Below, one piece after another: positions 6,701-60,048 of a DNA stretch of 64,000 bases. The notes below the pieces were generated by a model. That model was given only the letters and a program-made list of their open reading frames with translations. It was not told the DNA's origin and searched no databases. This stretch comes from Candidatus Latescibacterota bacterium (GTDB lineage: Bacteria > Latescibacterota > UBA2968), in the NCBI GenBank assembly GCA_965198115.1, contig OZ240241.1, positions 5,280,001 to 5,344,000 of the forward strand, written 5' to 3'. A program made the translations under genes and the position numbers. Position 1 is the first letter of the stretch. Each line of letters opens with the position of its first letter.

Positions 6701-7866
6701 GGTCCTGTCTCTCCTCACGGCCGACCTGAAATCAGGTTGGACTCCAATTCGCATCCTGCGAAATCGATGTGCTCGATGAACCGCTCGAGAACCCGTCTAT
6801 GTCCCGGTTCGAAGCAGGCGGCTTCCGCTACACGACCTACACGCTGGACCCTGATGGCCACGTCACCTCCGAAGCCTTCGCGGTCGCGGCGCCATTCCCC
6901 GCCGTAAACCGACAGACTATCGAACGCTTCATCGATGGCGAGCCCTGGCAGGCTATCATCGGCGGAACAGAATCGATTCTGGAAGTCCCCGCCGGCAGCT
7001 ACGGTCGCTTACGTCTCATCGCTACAGAACGCGATCAGTTTGCGGACGACGAAACCGCCACACTGAGGGAGTTCGCCGACGCCGTCGCGCTGGGCTACGC
7101 CCGCTATCTCGACATCCGCGAGATCCAGCTGCAAACCGAGCGTAAGTCCGCCTTCCTCGCCTCGATGTCCCACGAGCTCCGAACCCCGATGAACGCCATC
7201 AAAGGCTTCACGAATATGGTTCTTCGCCGGGCGGGCGACGTTCTCCCCGACCTGCAGAAGCAGAATCTTCAGAAGGTTGACCAAGCCAGCGATCACCTCC
7301 TCGCGATGATCAACGACCTCCTCGACCTCTCCAAAATCGAAGCCGGACGGATGGATGTGTCTCCCGAAGTCTTCGATGTGTCAGAACTCATCAGATCCTG
7401 CTGCGACACTGTCAGCCCGCTGGTCAAAGACGGCGTCGAACTACGTCACGAAATCGCGGAGAGCATCGGCGAAGCCCATACCGACCGCTCACGACTGCAA
7501 CAGATGGTCATCAATCTGCTTAGCAATGCAATCAAGTTCACGGATGAAGGAGCGGTGACGGTGTCCGCGGTTGTCCCCTCGACTCCGCTCGGGACAGGCT
7601 CTGGGCAGTCGGCGGAAGATGCGTCACTTGTCATCGCGGTGAGTGATACGGGCAAGGGAATCCCCGCAGAGGAACTCCCAACGCTCTTCGACGAGTATCG
7701 CCAGGTCGAAGGTCAATCCGATAACGATGTTCAAAAGGGCACCGGCCTCGGCCTATCCATCACAAAGAAATTCGCCGAGCTACTGAGTGGATCGATCGCT
7801 GTCGAAAGCGAAGTCGGCAAAGGCACAACATTTACCATCACCATTCCAGCAACCTATTCAGCGTAG
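3775..7866 (+). CDS. Sensor histidine kinase paralog (signal peptide, extra N-terminal domain, propeller repeats, Y_Y_Y, TM, GAF-like, HisKA, HATPase_c); frameshifts near 3815 and 6736
   Basis: ORFs 3888..6779 and 6769..7866 join as LKS/VGLQFASCEIDVLDE, matching paralog 1. The frame is open upstream of 3888 and a likely signal peptide starts at ATG 3775. H, N and G boxes are present. Confidence 0.88.
7576..7602 (-). repeat. 27-nt mini-element copy inside the kinase CDS
   Basis: 7575-7601 is the exact reverse complement of 58158-58184. It encodes PSTPLGTGS. Confidence 0.85.
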
Positions 7867-7943
7867 GCACAAGCACGCCGTTTCATACGCCCATTGGTGT
7901 AGGGACGAGTTGCAATGCACCCAAGAACCCATCACGCGTAGTC

Positions 7944-8575
7944 ATGACCTCCGGCAAAGCCGGAGGCTTGAAAACTTGTGAACCGCTCAAAGCGGTTGGA
8001 AACCAAGCGCCACCTAAAGGTGGCGATTACCTGAAAATGTTGAGCTGGTCGAGACGCCGGTCCTCCCGCTCCTGGTTCTGGATATACTCCCGAACCGTCT
8101 GTTCATCCTTGCCAACGGTGGAGACCCAGTAGCCTCTTGCCCAGAAATGCTGCCCGGTGAAGTTCGACCTGCGTCCCAGATAGTTCCGAGCAATGTGAAT
8201 CGCACTCTTTCCTTTGATGAACCCTACCGTCTGAGCTACTGAGTGCTTCGGCGGGATCGAAATCAACGTGTGCACATGGTCGGATCGCAGGTGACCCTCT
8301 TCCACACGGCATTCCTTCTGTGCGGCCAGATCCCGAATCACCTCGCCCAGATAGCGACGAATTTCACCATACAACACTTTTCTACGATACTTCCGAACCC
8401 AAACAACGTCATACTTGCACTCCCATACCGTGTGACGTAGACTCCTTACGTTGTTCATTAGAGAGCCTTCCTTCCGTGTGCTTTGAGCGGTCCACGGCAA
8501 GGGAGGCTCTTACATATTTCTGGAACTGTCAAACTCTGGGAGTCTCCCCGGCAGAGCCGGGGGCTTACCAAGGTT
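7944..8575 (-). mobile_element. IS200/IS605-family element, tnpA only (ends approximate)
   Basis: Subterminal hairpins cctccggc-aaa-gccggagg (7948-7966) and ccccggc-aga-gccgggg (8546-8562) flank a Y1 transposase. Confidence 0.85.
8027..8458 (-). CDS. tnpA: IS200/IS605 Y1 transposase TnpA
   Basis: CKYDVVWVRKYRRK, HUH motif DHVH, FWARGY, catalytic YIQNQ. ATG 8458 follows a GGAAGG RBS. Confidence 0.95.
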   Translation of the reverse strand: MNNVRSLRHTVWECKYDVVWVRKYRRKVLYGEIRRYLGEVIRDLAAQKECRVEEGHLRSDHVHTLISIPPKHSVAQTVGFIKGKSAIHIARNYLGRRSNFTGQHFWARGYWVSTVGKDEQTVREYIQNQEREDRRLDQLNIFR

Positions 8576-8684
8576 TAGTTATTGCATCCGAATAGAACGG
8601 CGATATCTTTTTGTTGCAATTCGCATCTCTGACAAGAGATAGAAGTCATCTCATAAATTTCCTAATTCCCTAATAGGTTTCCCG

Positions 8685-9173
8685 ATGCTCGACCAGGCCC
8701 AGGTTTCTCACCGGCTGAAAATCGCCCAGAAGATCCCCTTTCTAAAAGATTTGTCGGCAGATCAGGTCAACCGGGTGCTTCAGTCCGGCAAGCTCGCGTC
8801 AGTGGATGCCGGTAAACACCTTTGCAAGTCGGGTGACCACAGCAGTGCAATGTGGGTCCTGCTGGGTGGGCAACTGTCAATCCGGGATGGAGAAACAGTC
8901 CTGGCCATACTCGACGCAGTCGACCTTGCAGGAGAGATGGGACTGGTCACCGGTTTGCCACGCTCCGCCACCATCTTGGTCGCCCGGGACGCCGTTGTTC
9001 TCGAGATACAGAAGTTGCGTCTCGACGCACTCCTGAAAGATGACATCGACCTGGAAAGAAAACTCTATCGCAATATGCTGCAATCCCTCTGCGGTAAACT
9101 CAGGCAAAACAATGCTCAGATGACACAGGATGGCACGACGCTCGAGCGCGAAATCGCCGCTTCACTCACCTGA
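8685..9173 (+). CDS. Cyclic nucleotide-binding domain protein (no HTH)
   Basis: IPFLKDL, GEMGLVTGLPRSAT phosphate-binding cassette; 162 aa. Confidence 0.85.
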   Translation: MLDQAQVSHRLKIAQKIPFLKDLSADQVNRVLQSGKLASVDAGKHLCKSGDHSSAMWVLLGGQLSIRDGETVLAILDAVDLAGEMGLVTGLPRSATILVARDAVVLEIQKLRLDALLKDDIDLERKLYRNMLQSLCGKLRQNNAQMTQDGTTLEREIAASLT

Positions 9174-9253
9174 ACCCGTGTCCTTCGGACGCCTGGTCAA
9201 TCCTCTTCCACGATCAGCCTCTTCACCAATTTGTAGATTCATATCCCCTGTGC

Positions 9254-9325
9254 AGCGTCGAAAGCGATATCGGGAAGGGCAGCACCTTCACAATCACCCT
9301 TCCTTCGGGATACATCGCTGAGTGA
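9254..9325 (+). pseudogene. Relic C-terminus of a third histidine kinase
   Basis: Translates SVESDIGKGSTFTITLPSGYIAE*, matching the kinase ends VESEVGKGTTFTITIP. Confidence 0.75.
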
Positions 9326-9551
9326 GCAGGCGTGGAGGGCAGGAGAGTAGGTGTTGGCACTGCTTTCCCGTCCGACGCAGCAACAAGCTTGTCGCATCCT
9401 CTCGCCGACGGTTTATTGGGTGCTCTACTCGTTTCGCCCTTTCCCAGGCAACGGTGAACGGCTCACGCTCCCCCCAGTTCGTGAGACGTCCGCCGAAGCA
9501 ATCGATCTCTTCAAAGTTTGCAAGAACACCATCATCCCGAACGAGGTCCCC

Positions 9552-10556
9552 ATGCCCCTTAATCCCCAATGGCTCTCCCAAATCACCGAAGAAATCATCG
9601 ACCCCGACCGCCCCATCGTCGACCCACACCACCACTTCTGGCACAATGGTCGACGGGGCTACCCCTATCTCCTCGAACAATTGTGGGAGGACACCAACTC
9701 GGGTCATCGGATCGAGCAGACTGTGTTCGTCGAGTGCGGCGCAGAGTACGGTCAGGATGGGCCCGAGGAGATGCGGCCGGTGGGCGAGACCCCGTTCGTC
9801 GCCGATCTCGCATCTCGATCGACTGAGGACGGCGGTGCGACCGTCGCAGGCATCGTCGGCCACGCTAACATCGCGCTCGGCGCCGATGTGAAACCCGTGC
9901 TCGAAGCCCATATCGAAGCCGGACGAGGCCTGTTCCGCGGGATTCGTCATCACGGCAGCTGGGACGCAAGTCCGGATGTCCCCAACTCCCGCATTGAGCC
10001 TCCTCCCCATCTCTTCCTTTCCTCCGATTTCCAGGCGGGGATCAGACAACTGGGTGCACTGGGACTCAGTTTCGACGCGTGGTGCTATCATCCCCAGATC
10101 CCCGAGGTTGCCGAACTCGCGAAGGCGTGTTCTGAGACGACGATCATCCTGAATCACCTCGGCGGCGTCATCGGCATCGGTCCCTACGCGAATCGTCGTG
10201 ACGAAGTCTTCGAGCAGTGGAAGCAGAGCTACGCTGGTCTCAGCGATTGCCCCAACGTCTATGGCAAGATCGGCGGCCTCGCGCAGGGTGTGAACGGACA
10301 GGGTTGGGAGAAACGCGATCTGCCTCCCACATCCGACGAAATCGCCGACGTCCAGCGTCCGTATTACCTCCACGCCATCGAATGTCTCGGCCCCGACCGC
10401 TGTATGTTCGAGAGCAATTTCCCCGTCGAAAAAGAATCCGTATCCTACCACGTCCTCTACAATGCGTTCAAGAAGATCGCGGCGGATTTCAGCGAGAATG
10501 AGAAAGATGATCTGTTTCGAGGGAGTGCGATTAGAGCGTATCGATTAAAGGCGTGA
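9552..10556 (+). CDS. Amidohydrolase_2 family protein (lactonase-like)
   Basis: DPHHH metal motif, FRGIRH, LNHLGG, FESNFP. GAGG RBS before ATG 9552. Confidence 0.9.
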   Translation: MPLNPQWLSQITEEIIDPDRPIVDPHHHFWHNGRRGYPYLLEQLWEDTNSGHRIEQTVFVECGAEYGQDGPEEMRPVGETPFVADLASRSTEDGGATVAGIVGHANIALGADVKPVLEAHIEAGRGLFRGIRHHGSWDASPDVPNSRIEPPPHLFLSSDFQAGIRQLGALGLSFDAWCYHPQIPEVAELAKACSETTIILNHLGGVIGIGPYANRRDEVFEQWKQSYAGLSDCPNVYGKIGGLAQGVNGQGWEKRDLPPTSDEIADVQRPYYLHAIECLGPDRCMFESNFPVEKESVSYHVLYNAFKKIAADFSENEKDDLFRGSAIRAYRLKA

Positions 10557-10577
10557 CGATTTGCCGTCGCGAAGCTG

Positions 10578-10607
10578 CACCCCGGTAGGCTTCTGAGCCG
10601 GGGCCCA
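10578..10607 (+). repeat. Half copy of the gtcaccccgg..ccggggccca palindrome family
   Basis: caccccggtaggcttctgagccggggccca matches 15283 and 25541. Confidence 0.65.
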
Positions 10608-10720
10608 CTTTTATCTTCGTGAAAAACGGCGAAGATGAATCACGGCTCAACTCACTGCCAGGAGACAGTATGGTCGCTCAACGCCGCGAATGAGGACGCC
10701 ATCCCTAATAGAGAATCCCA

Positions 10721-11708
10721 ATGCCCGTCAATCACGAGTGGCTCTCCAAGGTCACTGAAGAGATCGTCGATCCCGATCGACCCATTGTCGACCCCCACCA
10801 CCACTTCTGGAAGAGCGGACGCTGGGGCCGCTACTTGCTCGACGACCTGTGGACCGACACGAACAGCGGCCATCGCATCGAGCGGACCGTCTTTCTCGAG
10901 TGCCGAGCTGAGTACGACCAAACCGCGCCAGAGATCGAAGCGCCGCTCGGGGAGACCCGATTTGTTGCGGATCTGGCCGCTCGATCGGCAGAGGGCGAAG
11001 GTATGCGGCATCATCGGACACGTCAACTTTCGATTCGGGTCCGAGGTTGAAGCGGTTCTGAAAGCGCATATCGAAGCCGGAAACGGGCTGTTTCGCGGCA
11101 TCCGACAATCCTGCACCTGGGATGCGAGCGACCAGATCCCGAACGCAGGCAGCAATCCGATCCAGTATCTCTATCGTCAGGATGATTTCCGCAAGGGATT
11201 CGCACAGCTGGCTCCGCTGGCACTCAGCTTCGAATCCTGGCTTTACCACACGCAGCTGCCCGACCTGACAGAACTGGCGCGTGCGTTTCCCGACACCACC
11301 CTCGTCGTCAACCATCTCGGAGGCTCCCTCGGTATCGGGCCCTACGCGAATCGTCGAGAAGAAATCTTCTCCCAATGGGCAGAGAACTATGCGGCACTCA
11401 GTGAATGTCCGAACGTGTTCGCCAAGATTGGGGGCATTTCGATGACAGCGAACGGGTTCGGTTGGGACGAGCGGGACCTTCCGCCCACTTCGGACGAGCT
11501 GGCGGATGCCCAGCGGCCCTACTACCTTCACGCGATCGAATGCTTCGGCCCGAACCGGTGTATGTTCGAAAGCAACTTCCCGGTCGAGAAGCAGTCCGTC
11601 TCGTATCACGTCCTGTGGAATGCATTCAAGAAGGTTGCCGCCGACTTCAGCGAGGATGAGAAAGACGATCTGTTTCGAGGAACGGCGGAAAGGGTGTATC
11701 GGTTGTAG
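10721..11708 (+). CDS. Amidohydrolase_2 tandem paralog; frameshift near 10995
   Basis: ORF 10721..11050 gives the N-terminus and ORF 10635..11708 the C-terminus; both align with 9552..10556. Confidence 0.88.
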
Positions 11709-11744
11709 GGATTGGTACCTGACATTCACGCGTCGCATTATGAT

Positions 11745-11839
11745 GTCAGACTGAGCGGGAGCCTGTCCTGAGCGGAGTCGAAGGGTCGAAGTCCCGGCCT
11801 AACGCGACTTGGCCGCCCTTCGACTCCGCTCAGGGTGAC
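11745..11839. repeat. REP doublet (ctgagcggagtcgaag family) with a nested 27-nt mini-element at 11758-11784
   Basis: gtcagactgagcg[ggagcctgtcctgagcggagtcgaagg]gtcgaagtc ... cccttcgactccgctcagggtgac. Confidence 0.8.
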
Positions 11840-11873
11840 CAAGTGCTTTGAACTATGACAAGTGGGAGAACCA

Positions 11874-12956
11874 ATGAATACCTACCGTGTAGGCATCATC
11901 GGCCTCGGCCGAATGGGTAGCACGATTGACGATGAGCAACACGCGTTCAAGCCGTACGCCATTGCGGCGTGCTGTGCCGAGATGGATCAGCTGGAAGTCG
12001 TTGCGGGGTCTGATCTGCAGGAGGATAAGCGAACGGCGTTCACAGAGCGGTGGGGCGTCGAATCAGTCTACGAAGACTATATGGAAATGGTCGAGAAGGA
12101 GGATCTCCATCTCGTCGCCGTCTGCACGACGGCGTCAGGTCTCTTCAAACCCACGCGCGAAGCACCCGACGCCAGTTTCCGAGGCGATTCTCACGCAGAC
12201 CTCACAGTCAGCCTCGCGAACGCCGGCGTGCCGATGCTCTACGTCGAGAAAGCGATGGCCAGTTCCGTCGCTCGCGCCGATGACATCCTCGAAGCCGTTC
12301 AGAAGAACAACACCGTCTTCAACTGTGGTGTCCTTCGCCGCTACAACGAACACTACCATCAGGTCCGCGACATCGTGGCCGAGGGCCAGATCGGCGACGT
12401 CACATCAATCGTCCACTTCGCATCGTCCAGCCTGATGCACGGCCACATTCACTCGATCGACACGCTCTCCTTCCTGGTCGGCGACCCCCGCATCCGATCG
12501 ATCCGCGGTGAGCTGATCCCCCACGATACCGTCATCGAAAACAACCACATCGCGTCCGACCCCCAGGCCACCTATCAGCTGATGTTCGAGAATGGTATCT
12601 ACGGATCGTCTGTACCGGCAGGGAACTGGGAATACGAAATTTTCGGATCGGAAGGAAGTGTTCGGTCCCTGAACAATGGTCAGGGCATTCAGCTGCGGAA
12701 GCCTGGCAAGACGTACGGCAGGAGGGCGGGTTTCGAGGATGTCCCGGTTGAAGCCGTCGAAGCCAGGAGCCACGTCATCACTTGCCTCGAAGACACCGTC
12801 AAGGCCTACGAAGAAGGCCGCCCAACGCTCGGCCCCGTCGATTTAGCCCACCACATCACCGAAGCCACCATCGCCGTCGCCGAAAGCCACCGCGCCGGCG
12901 GCGCCTGGGTCGATCTACCCCTGCAGGAGCGAGACCTCTACATCTTTCACATATAG
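11874..12956 (+). CDS. Gfo/Idh/MocA family oxidoreductase
   Basis: GIIGLGRMG Rossmann motif, VEKA, HxIDT. Confidence 0.9.
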   Translation: MNTYRVGIIGLGRMGSTIDDEQHAFKPYAIAACCAEMDQLEVVAGSDLQEDKRTAFTERWGVESVYEDYMEMVEKEDLHLVAVCTTASGLFKPTREAPDASFRGDSHADLTVSLANAGVPMLYVEKAMASSVARADDILEAVQKNNTVFNCGVLRRYNEHYHQVRDIVAEGQIGDVTSIVHFASSSLMHGHIHSIDTLSFLVGDPRIRSIRGELIPHDTVIENNHIASDPQATYQLMFENGIYGSSVPAGNWEYEIFGSEGSVRSLNNGQGIQLRKPGKTYGRRAGFEDVPVEAVEARSHVITCLEDTVKAYEEGRPTLGPVDLAHHITEATIAVAESHRAGGAWVDLPLQERDLYIFHI

Positions 12957-13241: not shown

Positions 13242-13242
13242 T

Positions 13243-16459: not shown

Positions 16460-16551
16460 TTCCGTGTATTCCGTGTGGTCCGTGGTCCAGGCCTTTCCTT
16501 TCGTGTTTTTCGTGTATGGAGCCTGCCTCGAACGAACGTGAGAGGTGGTTC
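16460..16551 (+). repeat. Nonamer arrays with a nested 27-nt mini-element (16518-16544)
   Basis: ttccgtgta ttccgtgtg gtccgtggt; tttcgtgtt tttcgtgta t[ggagcctgcctcgaacgaacgtgagag]gtggtt. Confidence 0.75.
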
Positions 16552-16575: not shown

Positions 16576-17355
16576 ATGCTCACACCTGAACAACAGGCCC
16601 ATTACGACACCTTCGGCTTTCTCCTGCTTCCGTCCGTGTTCCCGCCGGACGAAATGGCCGACATCATCGCTGGGGCCGACGCCATCTGGTCGAGCGACGA
16701 AACGCTGCTGATGAATGAAGAGGTACGGGTAACCTACTTCTTCGAACGATCGCCGCGTTTGACATCCCTCGTCACCGACGAGCGCATCTACCCCGTCATC
16801 GAAGCGATCGTCGGTGAAGACCCCATCTGGGTCGGGTCGGAGGGAAACATCAGCCATCGACGGCGCGTCAATTGGCATTCGGATCGCAAATACTACCGCG
16901 AAGGCGAGGGTCACTGGATCAACTTCTCGCAGGTCAAGGTGATGATCTATCTCCAGCCGCTGACGTCTGACACGGGCAGTCTTCGCGTCATCCCGGGGTC
17001 TCACCGAATGCCCTACCACAAGGCGCTTGGTGATCAGGAAATCGACGCCGCGTCGATGCCCTTCGGCGTCGACGGTCCGGACATGCCGCACGCGGCTCTG
17101 GAAGTAGAGCCCGGGGATATCATCCTATTCAATCACTGCTGCTGGCACGCGGCCTATGGCGGCGGAGACAACCGTCGCTACATCGCCATGAAATTCGCGG
17201 CCAGACCCTTCGAGCAGGATCAGCTCGCATCTCTCAAGCGCTACACACCCAAGATCTTTCAACCACACGACGCCTTCCTCACGCACGAAGACACAAGAAT
17301 ACGTGCGCTCGTGGACAGGATGCCCGGCTACGCATCGGGACACATCCTGAGTTGA
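16576..17355 (+). CDS. PhyH-like dioxygenase
   Basis: WHSD, LRVIPGSH, PGDIILF, WHA, RR. Confidence 0.9.
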   Translation: MLTPEQQAHYDTFGFLLLPSVFPPDEMADIIAGADAIWSSDETLLMNEEVRVTYFFERSPRLTSLVTDERIYPVIEAIVGEDPIWVGSEGNISHRRRVNWHSDRKYYREGEGHWINFSQVKVMIYLQPLTSDTGSLRVIPGSHRMPYHKALGDQEIDAASMPFGVDGPDMPHAALEVEPGDIILFNHCCWHAAYGGGDNRRYIAMKFAARPFEQDQLASLKRYTPKIFQPHDAFLTHEDTRIRALVDRMPGYASGHILS

Positions 17356-18153
17356 CGAAAGACACCGCCATCCAACTGACCGATCAGCAGTGTTGCGAAT
17401 TTGACCGGGAAGGGTGGGTGTTCCTGCCCGATCTCTTTCGGGCTGAGGAAATCACCGCTCTCAAGAACGAACTACCGGGAATCTTCGAACAGCAGCGCGA
17501 GGAAGTCTGGCGGGAATCGAACGATGAAGCAGTGCGAACCGTTTTCGCTGCGCACACCTACAACGATGTCTTCGCTCGTCTGGGGCGTCACCCCAGACTG
17601 ATCGGGCCGGTCACACAGCTCCTCGAGGGCCCGGTCTACATGCATCAATACAAAATCAACGCCAAAGCTGCCTTCGACGGGGGACGTCTGGCAATGGCAC
17701 CAGGACTACGGCACCTGGGCACGCGACGACGAAATGCCCGAGCCGCGTGCGATGAACATCGCGTTGTTCCTGGATGAAGTCACCGAATTCAACGGCCCTC
17801 TGTACTTTATTCCCCGCACCCACTCAGAGGGCGTCGTTGACGCCGGCCACGACAAACAGACCACATCCTACCCCCTTTGGTCACTCGACAAGGAAACCGT
17901 CGCCCGATTGGCCGACGAACACGGCATCGTCGCTCCCAAGGGAAAAGCCGGCTCGATCCTCCTCTTCCACTCGAACCTCGTCCACGCGTCAGCCCCCAAC
18001 ATCAGCCCCTGGGACCGCGTCATCGTCTACCTCAGCCTCTGCCACGTCGACAACCACATCCGCCGCTTCAAACGCCCCGAATGGATCGCCCACCGCGACT
18101 TCACCCCCATCGAACCACTGAGCGATGACTGTCTGCTACAGCTATCGCAATAG
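17352..18153 (+). CDS. PhyH-like dioxygenase related to ectoine/proline hydroxylases; frameshift at a G-run near 17681
   Basis: HQYKINAKAAFDG/DVWQWHQDYGTW..MPEPRAMN, NGPL, LVHAS. Confidence 0.85.
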
Positions 18154-21993: not shown

Positions 21994-22040
21994 AGCCCTG
22001 AAAGGGCGGCATATCTTAGCCCGGGGCGTCAGCCCCGGGA
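21994..22040. repeat. REP-like pair (gccctgaaagggc / agcccggggcgtcagccccggg); relative at 41107-41172
   Basis: Two short hairpins in the same order in both copies. Confidence 0.7.
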
Positions 22041-24411: not shown

Positions 24412-25398
24412 ATGTCCCCAGTCGTCCTGATCGCTGCCCGCCACAACCCCGAACTCGAAAAGATCCTCGACGACGTTCCCGAAGAAACGGAGCTCCGACT
24501 TCTGCCCGTTGAAGAAGCCATACCCACGAACGAAGGTCGCATGGTCGGGAAGGCCGCCAGGCTGAGAGATCATCTGCCCGGGGTCGAGGTTGTTTTCGGT
24601 GGGGTCCGCGAACAGGACTTTACGTTCGCAGATTCGCTCAAATGGATACACCAGCCCTCGATCGGAGTCGAAGGTCACATGTATCCAGCTCTTAAAGAGA
24701 GCGACGTCATCCTCACCAACTGCAAGGGTTTGGGCAGTACACAGCTTTCCGAACAGGCCTTCGCCCTGCTACTCTCCCTCACGCGCAAAACGCGCGAACA
24801 GCACGACTTCAACAAGGAAAAGACCTGGAAGCGCATCGACTGCTTCGAACTCTCCGGGAGCACCGTCGGCATCGTCGGACTCGGCGGGGTAGGGAAAGCG
24901 ATCGCCCTGCGCGCACACGCCTTCGGCTGCAAAGTGCTCGCGGTCGACATCGAAGACGTCGAGAAGCCCGACTACGTCGAGCGCGTCGAGAAGCCCGAGT
25001 GGCTCGGCGAGATGGCTTCACAGTGCGACGTCCTCTTCTCCGCAGTCCCTTCGACCCCTGTGAGCCACAAGATGATCGACGGCGACGCCTTCGGCCGGAT
25101 GAAGCCGACCAGCTACTTCATCAACGTCAGCCGAGGCAAACCTGTCGACGAGGAAGCCCTCATAGAAGCCCTCAGGGCCAACCGGCTGGCGGGAGCTGGG
25201 CTCGACGTCACCTACATCGAGCCGTGTCCACAGGACAGTCCACTCTGGGACCTTCCGAACGTCCTCCTCAGCTCCCACAGCGCCGGCGCCTCTCAGTATG
25301 TCAGACCGAGGGCGCTCAAGTTCTTCGTTGAAAATCTGCACCGATACGTCAAAGGCGAGCCCCTGGAGAAAGTCGTCGACAAACACAAAGGCTACTGA
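24412..25398 (+). CDS. D-2-hydroxyacid dehydrogenase, copy 1
   Basis: GLGGVG, NVSRG, GAGLDV..EP, SHSAG (Arg/Glu/His triad). Confidence 0.93.
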   Translation: MSPVVLIAARHNPELEKILDDVPEETELRLLPVEEAIPTNEGRMVGKAARLRDHLPGVEVVFGGVREQDFTFADSLKWIHQPSIGVEGHMYPALKESDVILTNCKGLGSTQLSEQAFALLLSLTRKTREQHDFNKEKTWKRIDCFELSGSTVGIVGLGGVGKAIALRAHAFGCKVLAVDIEDVEKPDYVERVEKPEWLGEMASQCDVLFSAVPSTPVSHKMIDGDAFGRMKPTSYFINVSRGKPVDEEALIEALRANRLAGAGLDVTYIEPCPQDSPLWDLPNVLLSSHSAGASQYVRPRALKFFVENLHRYVKGEPLEKVVDKHKGY

Positions 25399-25402
25399 GG
25401 CC

Positions 25403-25496
25403 AACACCGAATGTCCAACACCGAACGCCCAATGACGAAATATCCTTCGGTGTTCGACATTGGGTGTTCGACATTGGGCGTTCGACATTCGGAGTT
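25403..25496. repeat. Inverted heptamer tandem arrays
   Basis: aacaccg aatgtcc aacaccg aacgccc aatgacg / ttcggtg ttcgaca ttgggtg ttcgaca ttgggcg ttcgaca ttcggag. Confidence 0.85.
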
Positions 25497-25540
25497 CAGC
25501 TTTCGAAGCAAAGCAGATTGCCCCGAAAGGGGAAAAAACC

Positions 25541-25654
25541 GTCACCCCGGTACGCTTCTTAGCCGGGGCCCCATTCTCTTCGCTCACTGCTCTACATTCG
25601 AGCGACAGGCTTCGCAAGAGTTAGAATGGATCCCGGCTCGAACGCCGAGATGAC
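25541..25654. repeat. Palindromic doublet element, same family as 15283-15385
   Basis: gtcaccccggtacgcttcttagccggggcccattct ... agaatggatcccggctcgaacgccgagatgac. Confidence 0.75.
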
Positions 25655-25738
25655 AACCAGTAGTCGGTTGTCGCACAACAAAGCCCAAATGCTCGATTCT
25701 CGATATTCGATTTTCAATGCCCCATTGAGGTTTACACA

Positions 25739-26725
25739 ATGTCTGTCGTCGTCCTGATCGCCGCGCGTCACAACCCCGAGCTCGAAGAAATCCTGAACGA
25801 CGTGCCCAAAGGCACAGATCTCCGATTTCTCCCGATGGAAAAGGCCATTCCCACCAACGAGGGACGCATGGTGGGGCAAGCAGCAAATCTGAGAGATCAC
25901 ATCTCGGGCGTCGAAGTCGTCTACGGCGCCGTCGGCGAAAAGGACTTTCCCTATGCCGATTCGCTCAAATGGATTCAGCAGACAGGAATCGGGGCCGAAG
26001 GTCACATGTACCCGGCCCTCAAAGAGAGCGACGTCATCCTCACCAACTGCAAAGGTCTGGGCAGCACCCAACTCTCCGAGCAGGGCTTCGCTCTACTTCT
26101 GTCTCTCACACGCAAAACGCGTGAACAGCACGATTTCAACAAGCAGAAGACCTGGAAGCGCATCGACTGTTTCGAGCTTTCTGGAAGCACTGTCGGCATC
26201 GTCGGACTGGGTGGTGTAGGAAAAGCGATTGCGCTCCGGGCCCACGCTTTCGGCTGCAAAGTCCTGGCCGTGGACATCGAAGACGTCGAGAAGCCCGATT
26301 ACGTCGAGCGTGTCGAGAAGCCTGAGTGGCTTGGCGAGATGGCGTCCCAGTGCGACGTCCTCTTCTGTGCCGTCCCTTCGACCCCTGAGAGTCACAAGAT
26401 GATCCACGGAGACGTCTTCGGCCGCATGAAGCCCTCCAGCTATTTCATCAACGTCAGTCGAGGCAAACCCGTCGACGAGGAAGCCCTCATAGAAGCCCTC
26501 AGGGCCAACCGGTTGGCGGGAGCTGGGCTCGACGTCACCTACATCGAGCCTTGCCCGCCGGAAAGTCCTTTGTGGGACCTCCCGAACGTCCTCCTCAGTT
26601 CGCACAGCGCCGGCGCATCGCAATACGTCAGACCGAGGGCTCTCAAGTTCTTCGTCGAGAACCTCCATCGCTACGTCAAAGGTGAACCGTTGGAAAAAGT
26701 CGTCGACAAGCAGAAGGGCTACTGA
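25739..26725 (+). CDS. D-2-hydroxyacid dehydrogenase, copy 2
   Basis: Near-identical to copy 1; same motifs. Confidence 0.93.
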   Translation: MSVVVLIAARHNPELEEILNDVPKGTDLRFLPMEKAIPTNEGRMVGQAANLRDHISGVEVVYGAVGEKDFPYADSLKWIQQTGIGAEGHMYPALKESDVILTNCKGLGSTQLSEQGFALLLSLTRKTREQHDFNKQKTWKRIDCFELSGSTVGIVGLGGVGKAIALRAHAFGCKVLAVDIEDVEKPDYVERVEKPEWLGEMASQCDVLFCAVPSTPESHKMIHGDVFGRMKPSSYFINVSRGKPVDEEALIEALRANRLAGAGLDVTYIEPCPPESPLWDLPNVLLSSHSAGASQYVRPRALKFFVENLHRYVKGEPLEKVVDKQKGY

Positions 26726-26776
26726 GCACCCAATCTTCGATACTCAATTCTCGATGTTCGATCCCAAGGAATCGCA

Positions 26777-27757
26777 ATGGTCGTCCTGATCGCGGCGCGC
26801 CACATCCAGGAGCTGGAAGAAATCCTGAATGACGTGCCCAAGAGCACCGAAGTCCGGTATCTCCCGATGGAAAAGGCTATTCCCACCAACGAGGGACGCT
26901 TGTTGGGGGAAGCCACGAATTTGCGAGATCACATCTCGGGGGTCGAGGTCGTTTTTGGATCGGTTGGCCAGAAGGACTTCCCCTATGCCGATTCGCTGAG
27001 GTGGATTCAACAGATCGGCATCGGCGTCGAAGGTCATATGTATCCCGCCCTCAAAGAGAGCGACGTCATCCTGACCAACTGTAAAGGCCTGATGAGCACA
27101 CAGCTCTCCGAACAGTCCTTTGCCTTGCTTCTGACTCTCACGCGTTGTACTCGAGAGCAGCACGACTTCATGAAAGAGAAAACCTGGAAGCGGATCGACT
27201 GTTTCGAGCTCTCAGGGAGTACGGTGGGCATCGTCGGGTTGGGCGGGGTTGGAAGGGCCGTGGCACAGAGAGCACACGCTTTCGGTTGCCGGGTGTTGGC
27301 CGTGGACATCGAAGACGCTGAAAAGCCCGACTACGTCGAGCGCGTCGGAAAACCCGGTTGGCTGGGTGAGATGGCCTCTCAGTGTGACGTCCTCTTCTCT
27401 TGCGTCCCCTCCACACCCGAGAGCCACAAGATGATCGATGGAGACGCCTTCGGTCGAATGAAGCCCTCCAGTTATTTTATCAACGTCAGCCGGGGCAAAG
27501 TCGTCGACGAAGAAGCCCTCATCGAGGCCCTCCGGGCCGGCCGACTCGCGGGCGCCGGTTTGGACGTCACCTATATCGAGCCTTGTCCACCCGAGAGCCC
27601 CCTGTGGGAACTTCCCAACGTCATCCTCAGCTCCCACAGCGCCTCCGCGTCTCAGTACGTCAGACCCAAAGTGCTGAAGTTCTTCGTCGAGAACCTCCAT
27701 CGCTATGTCAAAAGCGAGCCGTTGGAAAGAGTCGTCGACAAACAGAAGGGATTTTGA
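26777..27757 (+). CDS. D-2-hydroxyacid dehydrogenase, copy 3
   Basis: Same motifs; highly similar to copies 1 and 2. Confidence 0.93.
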   Translation: MVVLIAARHIQELEEILNDVPKSTEVRYLPMEKAIPTNEGRLLGEATNLRDHISGVEVVFGSVGQKDFPYADSLRWIQQIGIGVEGHMYPALKESDVILTNCKGLMSTQLSEQSFALLLTLTRCTREQHDFMKEKTWKRIDCFELSGSTVGIVGLGGVGRAVAQRAHAFGCRVLAVDIEDAEKPDYVERVGKPGWLGEMASQCDVLFSCVPSTPESHKMIDGDAFGRMKPSSYFINVSRGKVVDEEALIEALRAGRLAGAGLDVTYIEPCPPESPLWELPNVILSSHSASASQYVRPKVLKFFVENLHRYVKSEPLERVVDKQKGF

Positions 27758-27764
27758 AGAGACG

Positions 27765-27850
27765 AATGTCCAACATCGAACACCGAACGTCCAATATCGA
27801 ATGGCCAAATCCTTCGGCGTTCGACATTGGGGCGTTGGATATTCGGAGTT
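27765..27850. repeat. Inverted heptamer tandem arrays, second copy
   Basis: aatgtcc aacatcg aacaccg aacgtcc aatatcg aatggcc / ttcggcg ttcgaca .. ttggata ttcggag. Confidence 0.85.
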
Positions 27851-27886
27851 TCGATCTCAGCCTGATCCATCTTTCGAGGATAAACA

Positions 27887-28828
27887 ATGCCAAAAGTCCT
27901 GATCGCTACCCGAGGCCCAGACGCATTGAAGGACGAATTGCACGACCTTCCCGATGGCGTCGACCTCCACGTTCAAGCGGCCGACGACCCTTATGGAAAT
28001 CAGCTCGAAGAGGCCGAGGTCCTGTGGGGTGTGCTTACCGAGGAGGGTTTTCCACGCGCCAAGTCGCTAAAGTGGGTTCATCAGCCGGGCATCGGCGTTG
28101 AACGGCACATGTACCCCGCCTTCAAGGAAAGTGACGTCGTCCTCACGAACTGCAAAGGGATGGCTGGCACGCAGATCCCCGAACACGCTTTTGCCCTTCT
28201 CTTCGCCCTCACGCGTCGAATCCTCGATCAGCACGATTTCATGAAGGAAAAACACTGGGAGCGCATTCCGTGCTTCGAAATGGCTGGAAAGACGATGGGG
28301 ATTGTCGCTCTCGGCAGCATCGGAACCGGCCTGGCTTACAGAGCGCACGCGTTCGGCATGCGTGTTCTCGCAGTCGATCCGGAACCGATCGAAAAACCCG
28401 ATTTCGTCGAACGCCTGGAGAAGCCCGAGTGGATTGGCGAAATGATGTCCCAATGTGACGTCGTCGTCTCCTGCTGCCCCATCACGCCGGAGAGCCACCG
28501 CGTCGTATCCGCCGACGCCATTGGCCGCATGAAACCCAACAGCTACTTTGTAAACATCAGCCGCGGCAAAGTCGTCGACGAAGAAGCGCTCATCCACGCG
28601 CTCCAATCGGGACGTATCGCCGGCGCCGGACTCGACGTCACCTACGAGGAGCCGCTGCCCGAAGACAGTCCGCTCTGGGACCTCCCGAACGTCATCCTCA
28701 CATCCCACAGTGCCGGCGCCTCCGACCAGGGGCTGCCGAGATCGGTCGATCTCTTCGTCGACAACCTGAATCGATACGTTAAAGGTGAGCCCCTCAGGAA
28801 TGTCGTCGACAAAGAGAAAGGCTACTGA
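27887..28828 (+). CDS. D-2-hydroxyacid dehydrogenase, copy 4 (more diverged)
   Basis: ALGSIG, NISRG, LDVTYEEP, SHSAG. Confidence 0.93.
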   Translation: MPKVLIATRGPDALKDELHDLPDGVDLHVQAADDPYGNQLEEAEVLWGVLTEEGFPRAKSLKWVHQPGIGVERHMYPAFKESDVVLTNCKGMAGTQIPEHAFALLFALTRRILDQHDFMKEKHWERIPCFEMAGKTMGIVALGSIGTGLAYRAHAFGMRVLAVDPEPIEKPDFVERLEKPEWIGEMMSQCDVVVSCCPITPESHRVVSADAIGRMKPNSYFVNISRGKVVDEEALIHALQSGRIAGAGLDVTYEEPLPEDSPLWDLPNVILTSHSAGASDQGLPRSVDLFVDNLNRYVKGEPLRNVVDKEKGY

Positions 28829-48456: not shown

Positions 48457-48542
48457 GGAGCCTGCCCGAGCGGATGCCAGGGGTCCACCATCTACCGTTC
48501 ACTTGTTCGCAGTCACTTCGCTTGCGGCTCAGTGCAGGCTCG
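48457..48542. repeat. Two degenerate mini-element copies in opposite orientation
   Basis: ggagcctgcccgagcggatgccagggg (+) and gagcctgcactgagccgcaagcgaagtg (-). Confidence 0.6.
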
Positions 48543-54565: not shown

Positions 54566-54732
54566 CATAGATACCGTCACACTGAGCGGAGTCGAAGTGC
54601 CGGTAATCGAGGCGCACCACGGCACGTCTTCACCCGTCACCACTCTCTGACTTCTGACCACCGATTGCCGGTCACCGCCCCCATAGAACCGTCACACTGA
54701 GCGGGAGTCGAAGTGCCGGTACTCACGGCGCA
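54566..54732 (+). repeat. Direct duplication (period about 116 bp) of a REP-like hairpin with heptamer arrays
   Basis: catag..accgtcacactgagcgg(g)agtcgaagtgccggta..ggcgca occurs at 54566 and 54682. Confidence 0.8.
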
Positions 54733-54758
54733 TTATGGCCATTCTCGGCCCAACTCAA

Positions 54759-56024
54759 TCACCCCGCCAGAAACTCAGCCAGCCTGGGTGTCTCCAACGT
54801 CCGAGTGATGCGAAACGACCCGGCCGGCCCATTAGGGTGTCCCGTATACACGAAGATGTGCTGAACGCCCTCCTCAGCATCGATGACCCCGCCCGCAGGA
54901 TGAAAACCGTCTGCCGTCTTGTAGAAACCCTCTCCTTCGTCCATTGAGCGCTTGTCGAACAGGACACCCTCGAACCGCCACTCCGCCGATTCCCACTCCG
55001 CCGGATCGATGCTCCACAGATCCACCAAGAGCCTTTCTCGAAACGACCGCACGACCTCCAAGCGACCCGTCACCGGATTGAAGTCGATGTCAACGGTGTC
55101 CATGACCTGCGTGTGTCGAATATTGGCCGTTCTTCTCACATCGACTGGCTTTCCACCCGACATCCGGATCTGCTGATAGGACGTTTTCGCTCGCTCATCG
55201 CGGCCCAGAATGAAAACATCCCCATCGTGAACGACGGCAGCTGGTTCGTGTTGTACCGCCCAGAACGGGAGTTCGTGAACGGTCTTGTCCCACGTGACGC
55301 CGTCGTCCTTTGAACTGAAAACCACGAGGTTATGGTGAAAGAGTCCGTCGGGGCCATCGACTGGATTGGGATACTGCTTCCCTCCTCCGTAACCCACCGT
55401 ATTTCCGAACGCGCAAAGCCCCATCTCGGGATGATCAATGATCCTCGGACCGAGATACACGATGTAGCCATCCATCGTGTCCTCCCGAAACTGATCGTTG
55501 AGGTGTGTCCACGATCCACCACGGTCTTTCGAGCGGAAAGCGCCGTAGTTACACAGCACCAGGACCGAATTCTCCCCAGAGGTTCCGATAGCGTTCAGAT
55601 GAAGCTTGTAGCCCTGCTTACTTTCGTTGACCGGCCCGAACTTGTACCGATGCGACAGAGGCAGGATGCCGCCGCGGTTCTTGTCATCGGGATGCATCGC
55701 CTCTCTAAGATCGACCGACCCGGACCACGTCTCGCCACCGTCCGCTGACGTCTTGGCCATGGAGAAAGTGGAGTGCTCGTCCCCGTTCCCGGCACCGTAC
55801 GCATTATGGCCCGGAATGCGGCGGTGAATGAGCACGAGCGTGTCCTCGACCTGCGTCGCCACAGGCCACCCCATATGATTGTTGTCCCCCAATGGGTCCT
55901 CCGGCAGAGCCACCGGAGTCATTTCGATCAGCCCTTGTCTGCGCCCTTCATCGAGCCGAGAAAGCTGCTCTTCACTCGTCGCAAGAAGGTCCAACGCAAA
56001 AGGTGAGAAGTTCGCTGGCGCCAT
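54759..56024 (-). CDS. BNR/Asp-box (sialidase-like) protein
   Basis: SADGGETW, SKDRGGSW, SKDDGVTW. Confidence 0.7.
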   Translation of the reverse strand: MAPANFSPFALDLLATSEEQLSRLDEGRRQGLIEMTPVALPEDPLGDNNHMGWPVATQVEDTLVLIHRRIPGHNAYGAGNGDEHSTFSMAKTSADGGETWSGSVDLREAMHPDDKNRGGILPLSHRYKFGPVNESKQGYKLHLNAIGTSGENSVLVLCNYGAFRSKDRGGSWTHLNDQFREDTMDGYIVYLGPRIIDHPEMGLCAFGNTVGYGGGKQYPNPVDGPDGLFHHNLVVFSSKDDGVTWDKTVHELPFWAVQHEPAAVVHDGDVFILGRDERAKTSYQQIRMSGGKPVDVRRTANIRHTQVMDTVDIDFNPVTGRLEVVRSFRERLLVDLWSIDPAEWESAEWRFEGVLFDKRSMDEGEGFYKTADGFHPAGGVIDAEEGVQHIFVYTGHPNGPAGSFRITRTLETPRLAEFLAG

Positions 56025-56092
56025 GTCACTCTCCCTCGAACGTACACGTGATGATTCTTCCCTGACGACCTCTAACTTCTGACCGCCAGCCG

Positions 56093-56872
56093 TTACTTTT
56101 CTCTTACCTGCTCCAACACCACCCGACTATCCCTGAACAGCTGATCCCAGTCCACATCCAGATTGATCCACGTGGCGCCCCGATCGATCCAGCGCTTGTA
56201 GTTCTCGGGCGTATAGCCGATCGACGATCCCAATACTCGTCCACGGTCGACGACCTTCTTCGAGATCGCATCGATCGCGGCCACCACTTCGGGATCGTCC
56301 AGCTGCCCCAGCTTCCCCATAGATCCCGCTAGATCGTTAGGTCCAAAGCAGAACACGTCGATCTTTTCCACATCGAGCATGGCGTCGATCTGCTCGACGA
56401 CTTCGATGTGCTCCATCTGAATCACAATGATCGGTTCATCCTCCATCTCCCTCAGGTAATCTACCATAGAGACCACGCCATATCGCATCCGCCGTTGAGG
56501 TCCGAAACCTCGAACGCCTACGGGTGGGTAGCGACACGCCTGAACAGCCGCAGCAACTCCGTCCGCGGAATTGACCTGGGGAATGATGATCCCCGCCGGC
56601 CCCAAATCGAGCACCGGCTTGATCACATTCACATCGTTCTGCGGAACACGAACGAACGGCGCCATATCCGTCCCTCTTGAAGCAAGCAGGTGACCTTGAA
56701 CGACCGATGGATCTAATGGTGAGTGTTCCATATCGACCCAGCTGAAGTCATAACCTGCTTCCCCGTAAAGCTCGCTGACTGCGGGATCCGAGAAGCTGAC
56801 GCCCGCCCCGATCGAGACCTCTCCTCTCTCTAAACGACCGCGAATCCGTTCGACATTGTTCACGCTGGCCAT
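56093..56872 (-). CDS. HpcH/HpaI class II aldolase
   Basis: DMEHSP, VRVP, RYPPVGVRG, QME, GPNDL. Confidence 0.92.
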   Translation of the reverse strand: MASVNNVERIRGRLERGEVSIGAGVSFSDPAVSELYGEAGYDFSWVDMEHSPLDPSVVQGHLLASRGTDMAPFVRVPQNDVNVIKPVLDLGPAGIIIPQVNSADGVAAAVQACRYPPVGVRGFGPQRRMRYGVVSMVDYLREMEDEPIIVIQMEHIEVVEQIDAMLDVEKIDVFCFGPNDLAGSMGKLGQLDDPEVVAAIDAISKKVVDRGRVLGSSIGYTPENYKRWIDRGATWINLDVDWDQLFRDSRVVLEQVREK

Positions 56873-56969
56873 TCCAGATCCTTTCGCCTGAGTACGATCT
56901 GTTACCCAATCCGGTGGATTTGCTGCAAATTGGGTGCTCCTGAACGACCACGATTCGACGAGGTTTCAG

Positions 56970-58055
56970 ATGAGCGACACCCAATCAGAGAAATCAGAGC
57001 GCCACGATGATAAGACGGGCGCCCGCGTCCTCCAACTGACCGACACACCGTGCGTGAACCATCCGCTTTACTATCTCGCCAACTCCTTCAGCCCCGACTC
57101 GGCCCGACTCGTCTTCGCCTCGAACCGAACCGGGTCCTACGCGCTCTACATCGTCGAGCTCGCCAGTGGCCAAATCGAACCCCTGTCGGATGTCGAAGGA
57201 ATTTACCCCTTCTCAGGCAACGTCATCGACAATCACGCCTACTATACGACCGCTCGAGGCAGCGTCTATCGGACCTCTCTAACGGATAGGTCTACCGACG
57301 AGCTTGCCTCGAAACCGAGCTGTGGCCTCGGCGAAGTCACCATCAACGCGACCGGCGATCTCGATTGTTGTCTCATCACGAACGACGGGAAAGCGAGCCT
57401 CCTCGTCTTTCGCACAGACGGCACGGAGACCTTCGTCGTCCTCGACGGCGCCCGTGCCCTCTATCATCCCCAATTCCATCCAACCGATCCCGAACTGCTG
57501 ATTTATTCCGCGGATCCGCCTGACCCGCGCCTGTGGAGCGTCCGCATCGACGGCTCCGAAGACCGGTGCTTCTACGCCGATCAGGGGGAAGAGTGGTTCG
57601 TCCACGAGACTTTCCTCGGACCGACGGATCGCGTTATCCTGTCGCACTGGCATCGTGGAATCATCGAGGTCGACCTCCGGACGGGCGCCCTCCGCACGAT
57701 CAGGGAGTTCAGTGCCTGGCACATCTCGTCGAATCCAGCCGGCGACCGCATTGTCTGCGACACGCATCTGCCCGATGTCGGCCTCTGCCTCGTCGATCCC
57801 GAAACCGGCGACTATGAATCCCTCTGCTATCCTGACGCCACGAACCAGGGTCATCAATGGTCCGAACCCACCCCCCTCGTCGCCGATGGCGAAGCCCCCG
57901 GCTGGGCCACGATGACCGAAGCCGTCTCCGCCGAAAGCGCCTACGGCCCCCAATGGAGCCACCCCCATCCCTCGTTCAGCCCGAATGGCAAATGGGTCTC
58001 CTTCACCTCCGACATCACAGGCCATCCTCAGGTCTATGTCGTCGAAGTGACGTGA
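56970..58055 (+). CDS. Oligogalacturonate lyase/TolB-like propeller protein
   Basis: QLTD..HPLYY, FASNRTG, HPQFHP, HETF, HPHPSFSP..FTSD. Confidence 0.8.
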   Translation: MSDTQSEKSERHDDKTGARVLQLTDTPCVNHPLYYLANSFSPDSARLVFASNRTGSYALYIVELASGQIEPLSDVEGIYPFSGNVIDNHAYYTTARGSVYRTSLTDRSTDELASKPSCGLGEVTINATGDLDCCLITNDGKASLLVFRTDGTETFVVLDGARALYHPQFHPTDPELLIYSADPPDPRLWSVRIDGSEDRCFYADQGEEWFVHETFLGPTDRVILSHWHRGIIEVDLRTGALRTIREFSAWHISSNPAGDRIVCDTHLPDVGLCLVDPETGDYESLCYPDATNQGHQWSEPTPLVADGEAPGWATMTEAVSAESAYGPQWSHPHPSFSPNGKWVSFTSDITGHPQVYVVEVT

Positions 58056-58082
58056 GACATTCACGCACAAAGCCGGAGAAGC

Positions 58083-58196
58083 GTCATCCCGGTACGCCTC
58101 TTGGCCGGGATCCCCTTGGCGTCTGCAACGCAGTTCAATTTCACTCCCTTCGCGCCGGAGCCTGTCCCGAGCGGAGTCGAGGGGCGTCTTCGTGTT
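58083..58196 (+). repeat. Half palindrome (58083-58114) plus an octamer array with a nested mini-element (58157-58183)
   Basis: cttcgcgc c[ggagcctgtcccgagcggagtcgaggg]gcgt cttcgtgt. Confidence 0.8.
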
Positions 58197-58204
58197 GATT
58201 TCCT

Positions 58205-59916
58205 ATGTCTAATCGCGACCCCTATCACTTGATCTTCAACAACGACGGCGGAACGCTCTTTCGCCCCTTCGCACCGGCCGGCGAGGAGCCCTTTACGAAA
58301 AAAGGCTTCGTCGACCATACCCTCGGCTATCTCGAGAACACGCAGGTCGACGCCTTCTCCTGGACCCTCGGGACGGATATCTGGCGCACGCCAGACATTC
58401 AGGGAGCCGGTCGAGCGACCAATTTTTACAGCCACAGGACCGAGGTCGGCGAGCGGTTCTACGACCTCGAGCCGCCCTTCCATGCGCGAAGCTGGCAGGT
58501 CATCGCCGACCGGGTCAAGCATATGATCGCCGAGGGCGACGATCCGCCGCTAGTGCTTGCTGACGCCGCACACCAGCGCGGGCTCGACTTCTTCCTTTCG
58601 GTCCGCATGAACGACGCCCACGACGGCCGCATCGTCGAACGCAACAGCAGGCCGCTCTATGGCTCAAAGCTCGCACTGAACTATCCCGTCTTCGAAAACG
58701 GCCGGTTCATCGAGGAGAACATCCGAGGCCACATCTGCCGGATGAAGCTGGAGCATCCGGAATGGCTGATCGGAGAGCAGAATTCACTCACACGCGTCTG
58801 CGCGATCGCGTTTGACTACGCCCACCAGCCAGTCCGCGACTTTCGTCTTGCCCTGATCGATGAAGGCGATCGGACAGTACGACATCGACGGAATCGAGCT
58901 CGACTTCCTACGACACCCTCTCGTCTTCAAGCCTGGAGAAGAGCGTAAGCACGCCCACCTGATGACGGCCTTCATCGGACGTGTAAGAGAAGCCCTCGAT
59001 CGGGCGGGCTCGGAGCGTGGTAAGCACCTGCGTCTTTCGGTACGTACGCTGGTTCCACTCGAGGCATCCCGCCGAATTGGGCTCGACGTCGACGAATGGC
59101 TACGCGAAGGCTTCATCGATATCTGGATAGGCGGCATCGTTGACCGTACGCGCCTCGATCTGCGTGAAGTCGTCAAGCTGGCTGCGAAATACGAGCGGCC
59201 CCGTCTATGCCTCGTTCAAGACAGATGCCATCCTCGGCCGTGGCCACCATAAGCCAGAAGCCTTCCGAGCCGTCGCGGCAAACCACTATCGCGCTGGTGT
59301 GCAGGGCATCTACCTGTTCAACATGACAGCTTATCGATACCGCTGGCTGGCAGGCCGGACACCCCCCGAGGGTCTGGGCTTGGACTACGATTACCGACCC
59401 TTGTGCGAGATCGGTTCGTTCGAAGACATTCGACACGAAGACAAACACTACATCTTCGACAACAAAGGATCGGGTCACCTGACGGACCTCCTCACCTTCT
59501 CGGAGTTGGCACCCGAACTGCAGGACCGACTGTTGACTTCCGAGTGGGGCACAGCTTTCGACAAGCCCGTCTTGCCAGCCCTCTTGCAACAGGGCCAGTC
59601 GGTCGAAACCGTCCTCCGGATCGCCGATGATCCCACCGATGCGGAGGAAGCTGGCCAGCGATTGACCGCGACCCTCCGTCTGATCCTCACCGATATGACA
59701 GGCGGCTCCCACGTCCTGACCCTCGTGTGGAACGGCAGCGCGCTTCCAGCGCAGACGTTGATCGAAGACATAACCTATCAGCTCGACCTCGATCTTTCAC
59801 CAGATCACATCATCTGCGGCGACAACGTGCTTGAGCTCTCGCTCGATTCTGGGGATCCCGAGGTCTTATCCGAAATCCGCATCGACGACGCACAAGTGAT
59901 CGTCAGCTACAAATGA
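58205..59916 (+). CDS. GHL10/DUF187-like protein; frameshifts near 58866 and 59200
   Basis: IFNNDG, SVRMNDAH, HPEW, DYA..VR, YDIDGIELDFLR, GIYLFN across three ORFs. Confidence 0.7.
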
Positions 59917-59993
59917 GTTTCCTTATACCCGGTGGTGAAGGCGCTCCTCCGAATATTGTCCCCGACAGGACCTCAGACGTAGGCCCGCCTCCC

Positions 59994-60048
59994 CACTGTG
60001 TCCATCTGTGTGCAGGCGCCTGCCCCGAGCGGAGTCGAGGGGTGGTTC
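59994..60048 (+). repeat. Decamer array with a nested mini-element (60015-60041)
   Basis: cactgtgtcc atctgtgtgc a[ggcgcctgccccgagcggagtcgaggg]gtggttc. Confidence 0.8.

Follow-up and report, generated by a model that had tools for sequence, protein, structure and literature searches.

We identified a very small hairpin-forming unit in a 64,000-nt stretch (the window; contig OZ240241.1, positions 5,280,001 to 5,344,000) of the 8.43-Mb genome of a Candidatus Latescibacterota bacterium (G000) and throughout that genome. The observations support a nonautonomous mobile element that enters other repeats without duplicating its target, usually overwriting 3 bases. The inserted unit is 24 nt long (CCTG-Y...R, that is, CCTG-stem-purine), not the 27-nt unit of a preliminary description of the window. 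Our overall reading, to which we assign a probability of roughly 40%, is that this 23- to 24-nt hairpin unit occupies fixed positions in other repeats, probably belongs to the class of the small dispersed repeats (SDRs), and is likely spread at the level of single-stranded DNA by a stand-alone UPF0213-like GIY-YIG nuclease together with host repair.

Copies in the window and in the genome

The 5 clear copies of the preliminary description (7576-7602 on the minus strand, 11758-11784, 16518-16544, 58157-58183, and 60015-60041) were recovered with the sequences and coordinates given there, and its degenerate copies (48457-48483 and, on the minus strand, 48515-48542) were also present; their extents as redrawn here are listed in Table 1. 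With up to 6 mismatches allowed, the pattern was matched at 167 places in the genome and the reversed pattern at 1, so the matches are not due to chance. A weight matrix identified 214 copies, along with 39 ordinary repetitive extragenic palindromes (REPs) of the CGTC type that have the hairpin head in common with the element. The genome-wide scan proposed earlier, with length variants added, gave ~250 copies, the merged set of 253 (24 nt, 215; 23 nt, 31; 25 nt, 5; 22 nt, 2) including a few false or REP-type hits. These 23- and 25-nt variants led us to reject the constant 27-nt length claimed before, and 23-nt units also made up 64 of the 128 matches listed in other genomes.

Empty sites and modes of insertion

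Empty counterparts, searched for with 14+14 flanking bases and up to 3 mismatches, were found for 111 of the 214 copies, with a 3-base gap in 72.5 (weighted); shuffled flank pairs, used as the control, gave 8 of 214. In a register test that left out the bases adjoining the junctions, the net insertion equaled the unit length at 57 of 80 reconstructed sites of 24-nt units and at 13 of 14 sites of 23-nt units (+23). Filled and empty sites agreed in 52 of 57 cases at each of positions -5 and -4 and in 56 of 57 at +2, and in 11, 9, and 5 of 57 at -3, -2, and -1, respectively, giving a sharp left boundary. Among the sites off register, 8 without 3 further bases resemble one composite family.

Two forms of insertion were distinguished. 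The overwrite form comprises 28 nt (a 4-nt leader, RGAG, and the 24-nt unit) in place of 4 target bases, with GGAG, AGAG, and GAAG as leaders and mostly TCCG or TTCG as the bases replaced. In the second form the unit is inserted without target loss, and the net gain equals the unit length in both. The replacement of 3 nt that had been proposed therefore describes most reconstructed sites (61 of 72) but is not universal, as 11 of 72 retain the triplet. Both modes and several unit variants were found at one host position, which indicates that insertion recurred. No target duplication was seen, as had been stated before, and the 2-base gap at 11758 and the loss of TTC at 16518 and 58157 agree with the genome-wide empty sites. 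Two further relations were rejected: the lost triplet is inverted (TCC to GGA) no more often than in shuffled data, and the element loop shows no covariation with the target that would indicate pairing (p = 1.0).

The alignment of orthologous loci that the preliminary description had suggested covered 38 sites in relatives (pairs with a congener), of which 7 were informative and 31 uninformative. In 6 of the 7 the difference was exactly +24 with 3 bases overwritten. Pairs filled in the present genome were those at 16518 (TTC to GGA), 60015 (CCG to GGC), and genome positions 7372120 (TTC to GTA) and 7383109 (TCC to GGA), and 2 pairs were filled in the relative used as the orthologue source (G001) and empty here, namely the REP arm at 11817 and locus L430 (GCCG to GGAG, with terminal A); filled and empty states were thus seen in both directions. 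The seventh pair gave +22, with a 23-nt unit against a 4-base loop. At 16518 the empty orthologue carries the TTC reconstructed earlier; at 60015 an empty orthologue and a net gain of 24 were confirmed, but the lost bases are CCG and not TCT. With orthologous pairs running both ways, compensatory changes in the hairpin, and copies in cultured isolates, an assembly or sequencing artefact is hardly credible.

Boundaries and structure of the unit

The boundary was set at 24 nt because the base past the earlier 27-mer pairs with the first stem base. The G that had been described as a flanking next base belongs to the element stem, and the terminal purine covaries with the first stem base, with T-A, C-A, T-G, and C-G combinations numbering 37, 3, 123, and 83 in this genome (p = 2e-5) and 35, 6, 67, and 133 in other genomes (p = 1e-9); A nearly always goes with T. 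A Nostoc punctiforme copy, preceded by A, beginning with CTTG, ending in A, and lying within a heptamer tract, confirms these boundaries.

The unit is composed of a tag (CCTG, CTTG, or TTTA), a 4-bp stem, tandem G.A pairs, 1 more pair, and a C-GNA-G loop. Covariation among 129 distinct cores showed 3 compensatory outer pairs, the invariant tandem G.A, a G-C/A-T pair, the C-GNA-G loop, and a variable base; position 18, the free base after the loop, was T in 76, G in 33, C in 10, and A in 7 of the cores. Standard folding returned weak DNA hairpins, since G.A pairs lie outside the folding model, and RNA folds were predicted to be stabler than DNA folds. The stabler RNA folds suit an RNA intermediate, with the unit copied by a reverse transcriptase or serving as a repair template, a route that the original SDR proposal reportedly invoked, and of 164 copies located between tandem genes, 99 have the hairpin in the sense strand (p = 0.01). 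However, the C-GNA-G minihairpin is DNA-specific, and the GNA loop with a free base after it suits that structure; copies in genes, moreover, are mostly antisense. We consider passage through RNA quite unlikely.

Host repeats

Short-repeat flanks were identified at 96 of the 253 copies; among 1000 control sites of each kind, 171 intergenic and 94 genic ones had them (p = 8e-12). Besides heptamer arrays and REPs of the CGTC and GTAG types, the element itself, in either orientation, serves as a host. The flanks fell into 104 distinct clusters, 75 of them singletons and the largest with up to 21 members, and 19-58% of 7 host pools were filled. Host co-amplification surely inflates the copy number, and the counts are not independent events; it does not explain the fixed ends.

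The filled hosts that occur in families with common variants, in clusters of up to 21, and the filled share of the host pools could also reflect a process with no dedicated enzyme, in which a small number of old insertions multiplied along with their host repeats and were exchanged through template switching or gene conversion where each host's own nuclease had nicked the DNA. This account is hard to square with so many distinct flank clusters and singletons, with near-identical units across many phyla and unrelated hosts, with insertion at a unique site in a kinase gene, and with the fixed ends; we regard it as unlikely.

At G000:C1:3207600-3207800, triple nesting was found, with a heptamer tract holding the element and the element holding an inverted element in its loop. 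In the window, a palindromic family (GTCCCCGTGC...GCACGGGGAC) that hosts the element elsewhere occupies at least 5 intergenic spaces between 31114 and 43712.

Copies in genes

Among the 214 copies, 197 were intergenic and 16 lay in called genes, several of them doubtful, with genes called by a crude codon model made for this analysis and covering 80% of the genome. Each clear copy in the window had been said to interrupt another repeat; the others do sit in REP or heptamer hosts, but the copy at 7576 lies within a histidine-kinase gene and not in a free heptamer array. A paralogue of this gene lacks exactly 24 nt (8 codons) and has ACT where the filled gene has AGA; its Ser codon is AGT and that of the filled gene TCT, a 2-base change as expected from overwriting. 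Another kinase pair differs by a 23-nt unit, for a net gain of 7 residues. The suggestion that a gain of 24 preserves the frame and aids survival in open reading frames holds for one gene; as a reason for the length it fails, given the 16 of 214 copies in genes and the common 23-nt forms. The element accounts for recurrent 8-residue inserts, for example PSTPLGTG or PSASSGQA, in predicted proteins.

A gene of 1932 aa (G000:C1:4364833-4370631, minus strand) carries 2 adjacent in-frame octapeptides derived from the element. Varied repeat-derived inserts of 9-34 residues were found in the same ATPase-domain loop of many histidine-kinase paralogues in the genome (for example, 2418136-2419587, 5463885-5465690, and 3528127-3529092).

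Range and kinship with known systems

We identified the pattern in 24 of 168 genomes in a survey of the phylum and at no fewer than 126 viral-contig loci and 122 genome loci. The matches listed span Acidobacteriota, Chloroflexota, Bacteroidota, Pseudomonadota, Nitrospirota, Verrucomicrobiota, Planctomycetota, Patescibacteria, Cyanobacteriota, and other phyla, and include cultured isolates; among them the upstream triplet in other genomes was AGA in 27 of 128 and GGA in 8 of 128, the rest being diverse. Both insertion modes are widespread. On plasmid pNPUN02 of N. punctiforme, one 24-nt unit lay within a heptamer tract (the search covered the plasmid only, not the chromosome); Nodularia harveyana had 37 copies, and 12 of 41 genomes of the family of N. 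punctiforme had the unit.

Elements of this kind have probably been described already, as the SDRs of Nostocaceae, and are met here in a new form and range; what appears to be new is the overwrite mode, the range of phyla, and the candidate enzyme. Elhai et al. 2008 (Genome Res 18:1484) reportedly defined SDR1-8 of Nostocaceae as dispersed, multi-copy repeats of 21-27 nt, which are said to lie within heptamer repeats or other small elements, to nest in themselves, and to form a hairpin with compensatory changes. The present element, with 253 copies of mostly 23-25 nt, falls within that description, similarly sits in heptamer repeats, other small elements, and itself, has a hairpin backed by compensatory changes, and occurs in N. 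punctiforme and its family. Kinship with the SDRs is therefore highly probable, SDR1 being the suspected counterpart. The occurrence in many phyla and not in Nostocaceae only is a difference that extends the range and does not exclude kinship. SDRs are cited in passages of PMC5861425, PMC4390886, PMC3116915, and PMC2884548, and those passages do not contain the leader, the overwrite form, or a nuclease link. A literature search whose coverage excluded Elhai 2008 and most subscription papers found no text with the element sequence, range, or overwrite mode.

CGTC-type REPs and the NTS-SRM-Ssn system resemble the element in having a short tag 5' of a hairpin, an association (for the element a putative one) with stand-alone GIY-YIG genes, and 8 nt between 5' end and stem (in the relevant passages of PMC3733652 and PMC11893778), and in this genome such REPs have an 18-nt hairpin head in common with it. 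They differ in tag (CGTC or TGTC, against CCTG, CTTG, or TTTA) and stem (8-9 bp, against 4 bp with tandem G.A), as far as those passages of PMC3733652 and PMC11893778 describe them; the element enters other repeats as one single unit, and its candidate nuclease is UPF0213-like and not of cd10448. The REP/REPIN-RAYT systems likewise consist of nonautonomous hairpin repeats with a trans-acting single-strand enzyme, a candidate only in the case of the element, whereas the element has no GTAG at the stem foot, a leader 4 nt from the stem that is absent in the no-loss form, and a unit that is not a doublet. In-frame insertion into protein loops is also on record for the palindromic elements of Rickettsia and for intragenic REPs (cited in a passage of PMC3733652), but the present element adds only 8 codons and is mainly intergenic. 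Unlike miniature inverted-repeat transposable elements, it has neither terminal inverted repeats nor target-site duplication, and unlike IS200/IS605 derivatives it loses target bases at most sites, loss-free insertion being confined to the no-loss form.

A candidate nuclease

A trans-acting enzyme, of the HUH/RAYT type or another, had been suggested in the preliminary description; such an enzyme is plausible, but the evidence favors a stand-alone GIY-YIG nuclease over RAYT or HUH enzymes. In relatives rich in the element, hairpins related to it accompany small GIY-YIG genes. At metagenome loci of a stand-alone family resembling UPF0213 (PDB 1zg2, 1ywl), and not the cd10448 family, the same hairpin head was identified in 74 of 80 cases, with at least 2 copies in 70, against 0 for the reversed pattern and 37 of 1000 random genome windows. 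A search for nuclease genes flanked by the element, as had been proposed, found the hairpin head beside GIY-YIG genes, but the element's own tag at only 6 of 80 loci and no flanked RAYT at the 22 Y1 places checked. Within the phylum, 9 of the 24 genomes with the element had the GIY-YIG gene, as did 10 of the 144 without it (p = 2e-4, kin not being independent); after removal of the 4 genomes that gave the seeds, it was present in 5 of 20 element-positive genomes (p = 0.02). In the genome under study, one copy of the gene is intact and a second is disrupted by an insertion sequence (IS); members of the family include G000:C1:214168-214413 and L128. A small GIY-YIG gene between CGTC-type REPs (L319; G000:C1:508700-511200) is interrupted by an IS256-like element, and its 3' REP holds a 24-nt element.

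According to a passage of PMC11893778, the related single-strand GIY-YIG nuclease SsnA releases a 20-nt fragment from oligonucleotide NTS75; by our own count, the stem starts at base 29, which places the cut 8 nt before the stem. The leader and tag of the element together also measure 8 nt. The nuclease may thus bind the hairpin head and nick 8 nt 5' of the stem, a position that would set the 5' end of the leader. Copying or ligation would then place the nicked donor at an opened site within another repeat, where the hairpin would loop out and so keep the register; the no-loss form would arise if the mismatched leader were trimmed, and the overwrite form if it were retained. The preference for repeats could stem from nicks of their own or could be only tolerance.

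An HUH (Y1) transposase, RAYT or IS200 TnpA, could instead act by peel-and-paste, the unit traveling as a tiny circle of single-stranded DNA with the leader as a GTAG-like guide. The absence of target duplication, leaders that terminate in AG, clean no-loss insertions with head-to-tail 24-nt dimers suited to a circle junction (G122; L173, L234), and 75 Y1 matches in the genome, one of them within the window, agree with this. Peel-and-paste by IS608 and ISDra2, however, leaves target bases intact, unlike the overwriting seen here. Only 3 of 22 checked Y1 places lie within 3 kb of a copy, and none of the 22 gave a RAYT or Y1 gene flanked by the element; at individual sites the leader does not complement the lost triplet (20 observed against 17.2 after shuffling, p = 0.13); and the genes flanked by the hairpin head are GIY-YIG genes, flanks of RAYT relatives being outside that survey. 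We therefore hold a Y1 enzyme to be unlikely. The TnpA gene in the window is one of ~25 near-identical full copies.

Several findings weigh against the GIY-YIG nuclease as the agent of spread. Hairpins at the nuclease loci have other tags and longer stems, with the element's own tag as rare as noted above, and the intact GIY-YIG gene here is flanked by a long-loop variant and not by the strict hairpin. Among the matches listed, no nuclease gene lay within 1.2 kb (80 loci) or 0.3 kb of 248 element loci, and genomes G077 and G078, with 10 and 14 copies, gave no hit to the nuclease family. The co-occurrence count includes kin that are not independent, the 8-nt match comes from a different subfamily and could be chance, 23 of 80 reconstructed 24-nt sites are off register, and only 103 of 253 copies have their hairpin strand on the G-rich (lagging-template) strand, the reverse of what a simple lagging-strand model would give. 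In addition, no recurrent neighbor gene was found beside the element at the 122 genome loci listed, and no nuclease among the genes between 28 copy pairs or 69 small neighbors in this genome, as judged by eye with no family scan.

A bolder form of the nuclease reading is somewhat doubtful: a pan-bacterial minimal mobile element, consisting of a single 24-base DNA hairpin, would be mobilized by the UPF0213-like GIY-YIG nuclease nicking 8 bases before the stem, would overwrite 4 target bases in register, and would parasitize the repeats of every other small-repeat system. If true, it would identify the enzyme still missing for SDR-type elements and establish a route of transposition that relies on nuclease plus repair and needs no transposase. 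How the smallest mobile repeats move is an open question (Di Nocera et al.). To this question the element brings exact ends, a target pattern, and 2 insertion outcomes, together with a candidate family of enzymes and a prediction of where the cut falls; its occurrence in cultured isolates makes the question reducible to a simple oligonucleotide assay.

Longer relatives with the same leader and tag and an extended or nested inner part were found inside repeats beside Ssn-like genes (L130, L131). Another small type of GIY-YIG gene (L133, L143) has different hairpin flanks, and at L143 it follows a stable-RNA-like 3' end.

Features of the window

Table 1. Element copies and associated features in the window.
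Feature	Position	Strand	Remarks
Element, leader AGAG + 24-nt unit	7575..7602	-	In frame within histidine-kinase gene; coding strand reads PSTPLGTG
Host gene, sensor histidine kinase, 365 aa	6769..7866	+	Frame open across insert
IS200/IS605 TnpA adjoining kinase gene	8027..8500	-	Weighed as trans-acting enzyme, not favored
Element, GGAG + 24 nt	11758..11785	+	Loop of left arm of CGTC-type REP doublet; net +25 vs usual arm
Empty partner REP arm, same hairpin head	11817..11843	-	Orthologous G001 arm filled, 27 nt replacing TCC
Element, GGAG + 24 nt, ACGAACGT inner variant	16518..16545	+	Host is a TTCGTG heptamer array; empty orthologue carries TTC
Degenerate copy, one base lost, GA to CA	48457..48483	+	In GTCCACC-type heptamer array; intact copies of variant elsewhere in genome
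25-nt variant, leader CGAG	48514..48542	-	In GGTGGGAGC palindromic repeat
Ordinary CGTC-type REP with the element's 18-nt hairpin head	54572..54598	+	Not the element
Element, GGAG + 24 nt	58157..58184	+	In CTTCGCG/CTTCGTG heptamer tract
Element, GGCG + 24 nt	60015..60042	+	In ATCTGTG heptamer tract; orthologue empty, CCG, net +24

An Rfam search of the window gave Acido-Lenti-1 as the sole match (21994-22039, minus strand; 63.7 bits), away from the element copies. Four tandem paralogous genes of ~325 aa, with 71-84% DNA identity and short tandem repeats between them, occupy 24412-28828, and an ectoine-hydroxylase-like gene at 17352-18153 is split between 2 overlapping frames.

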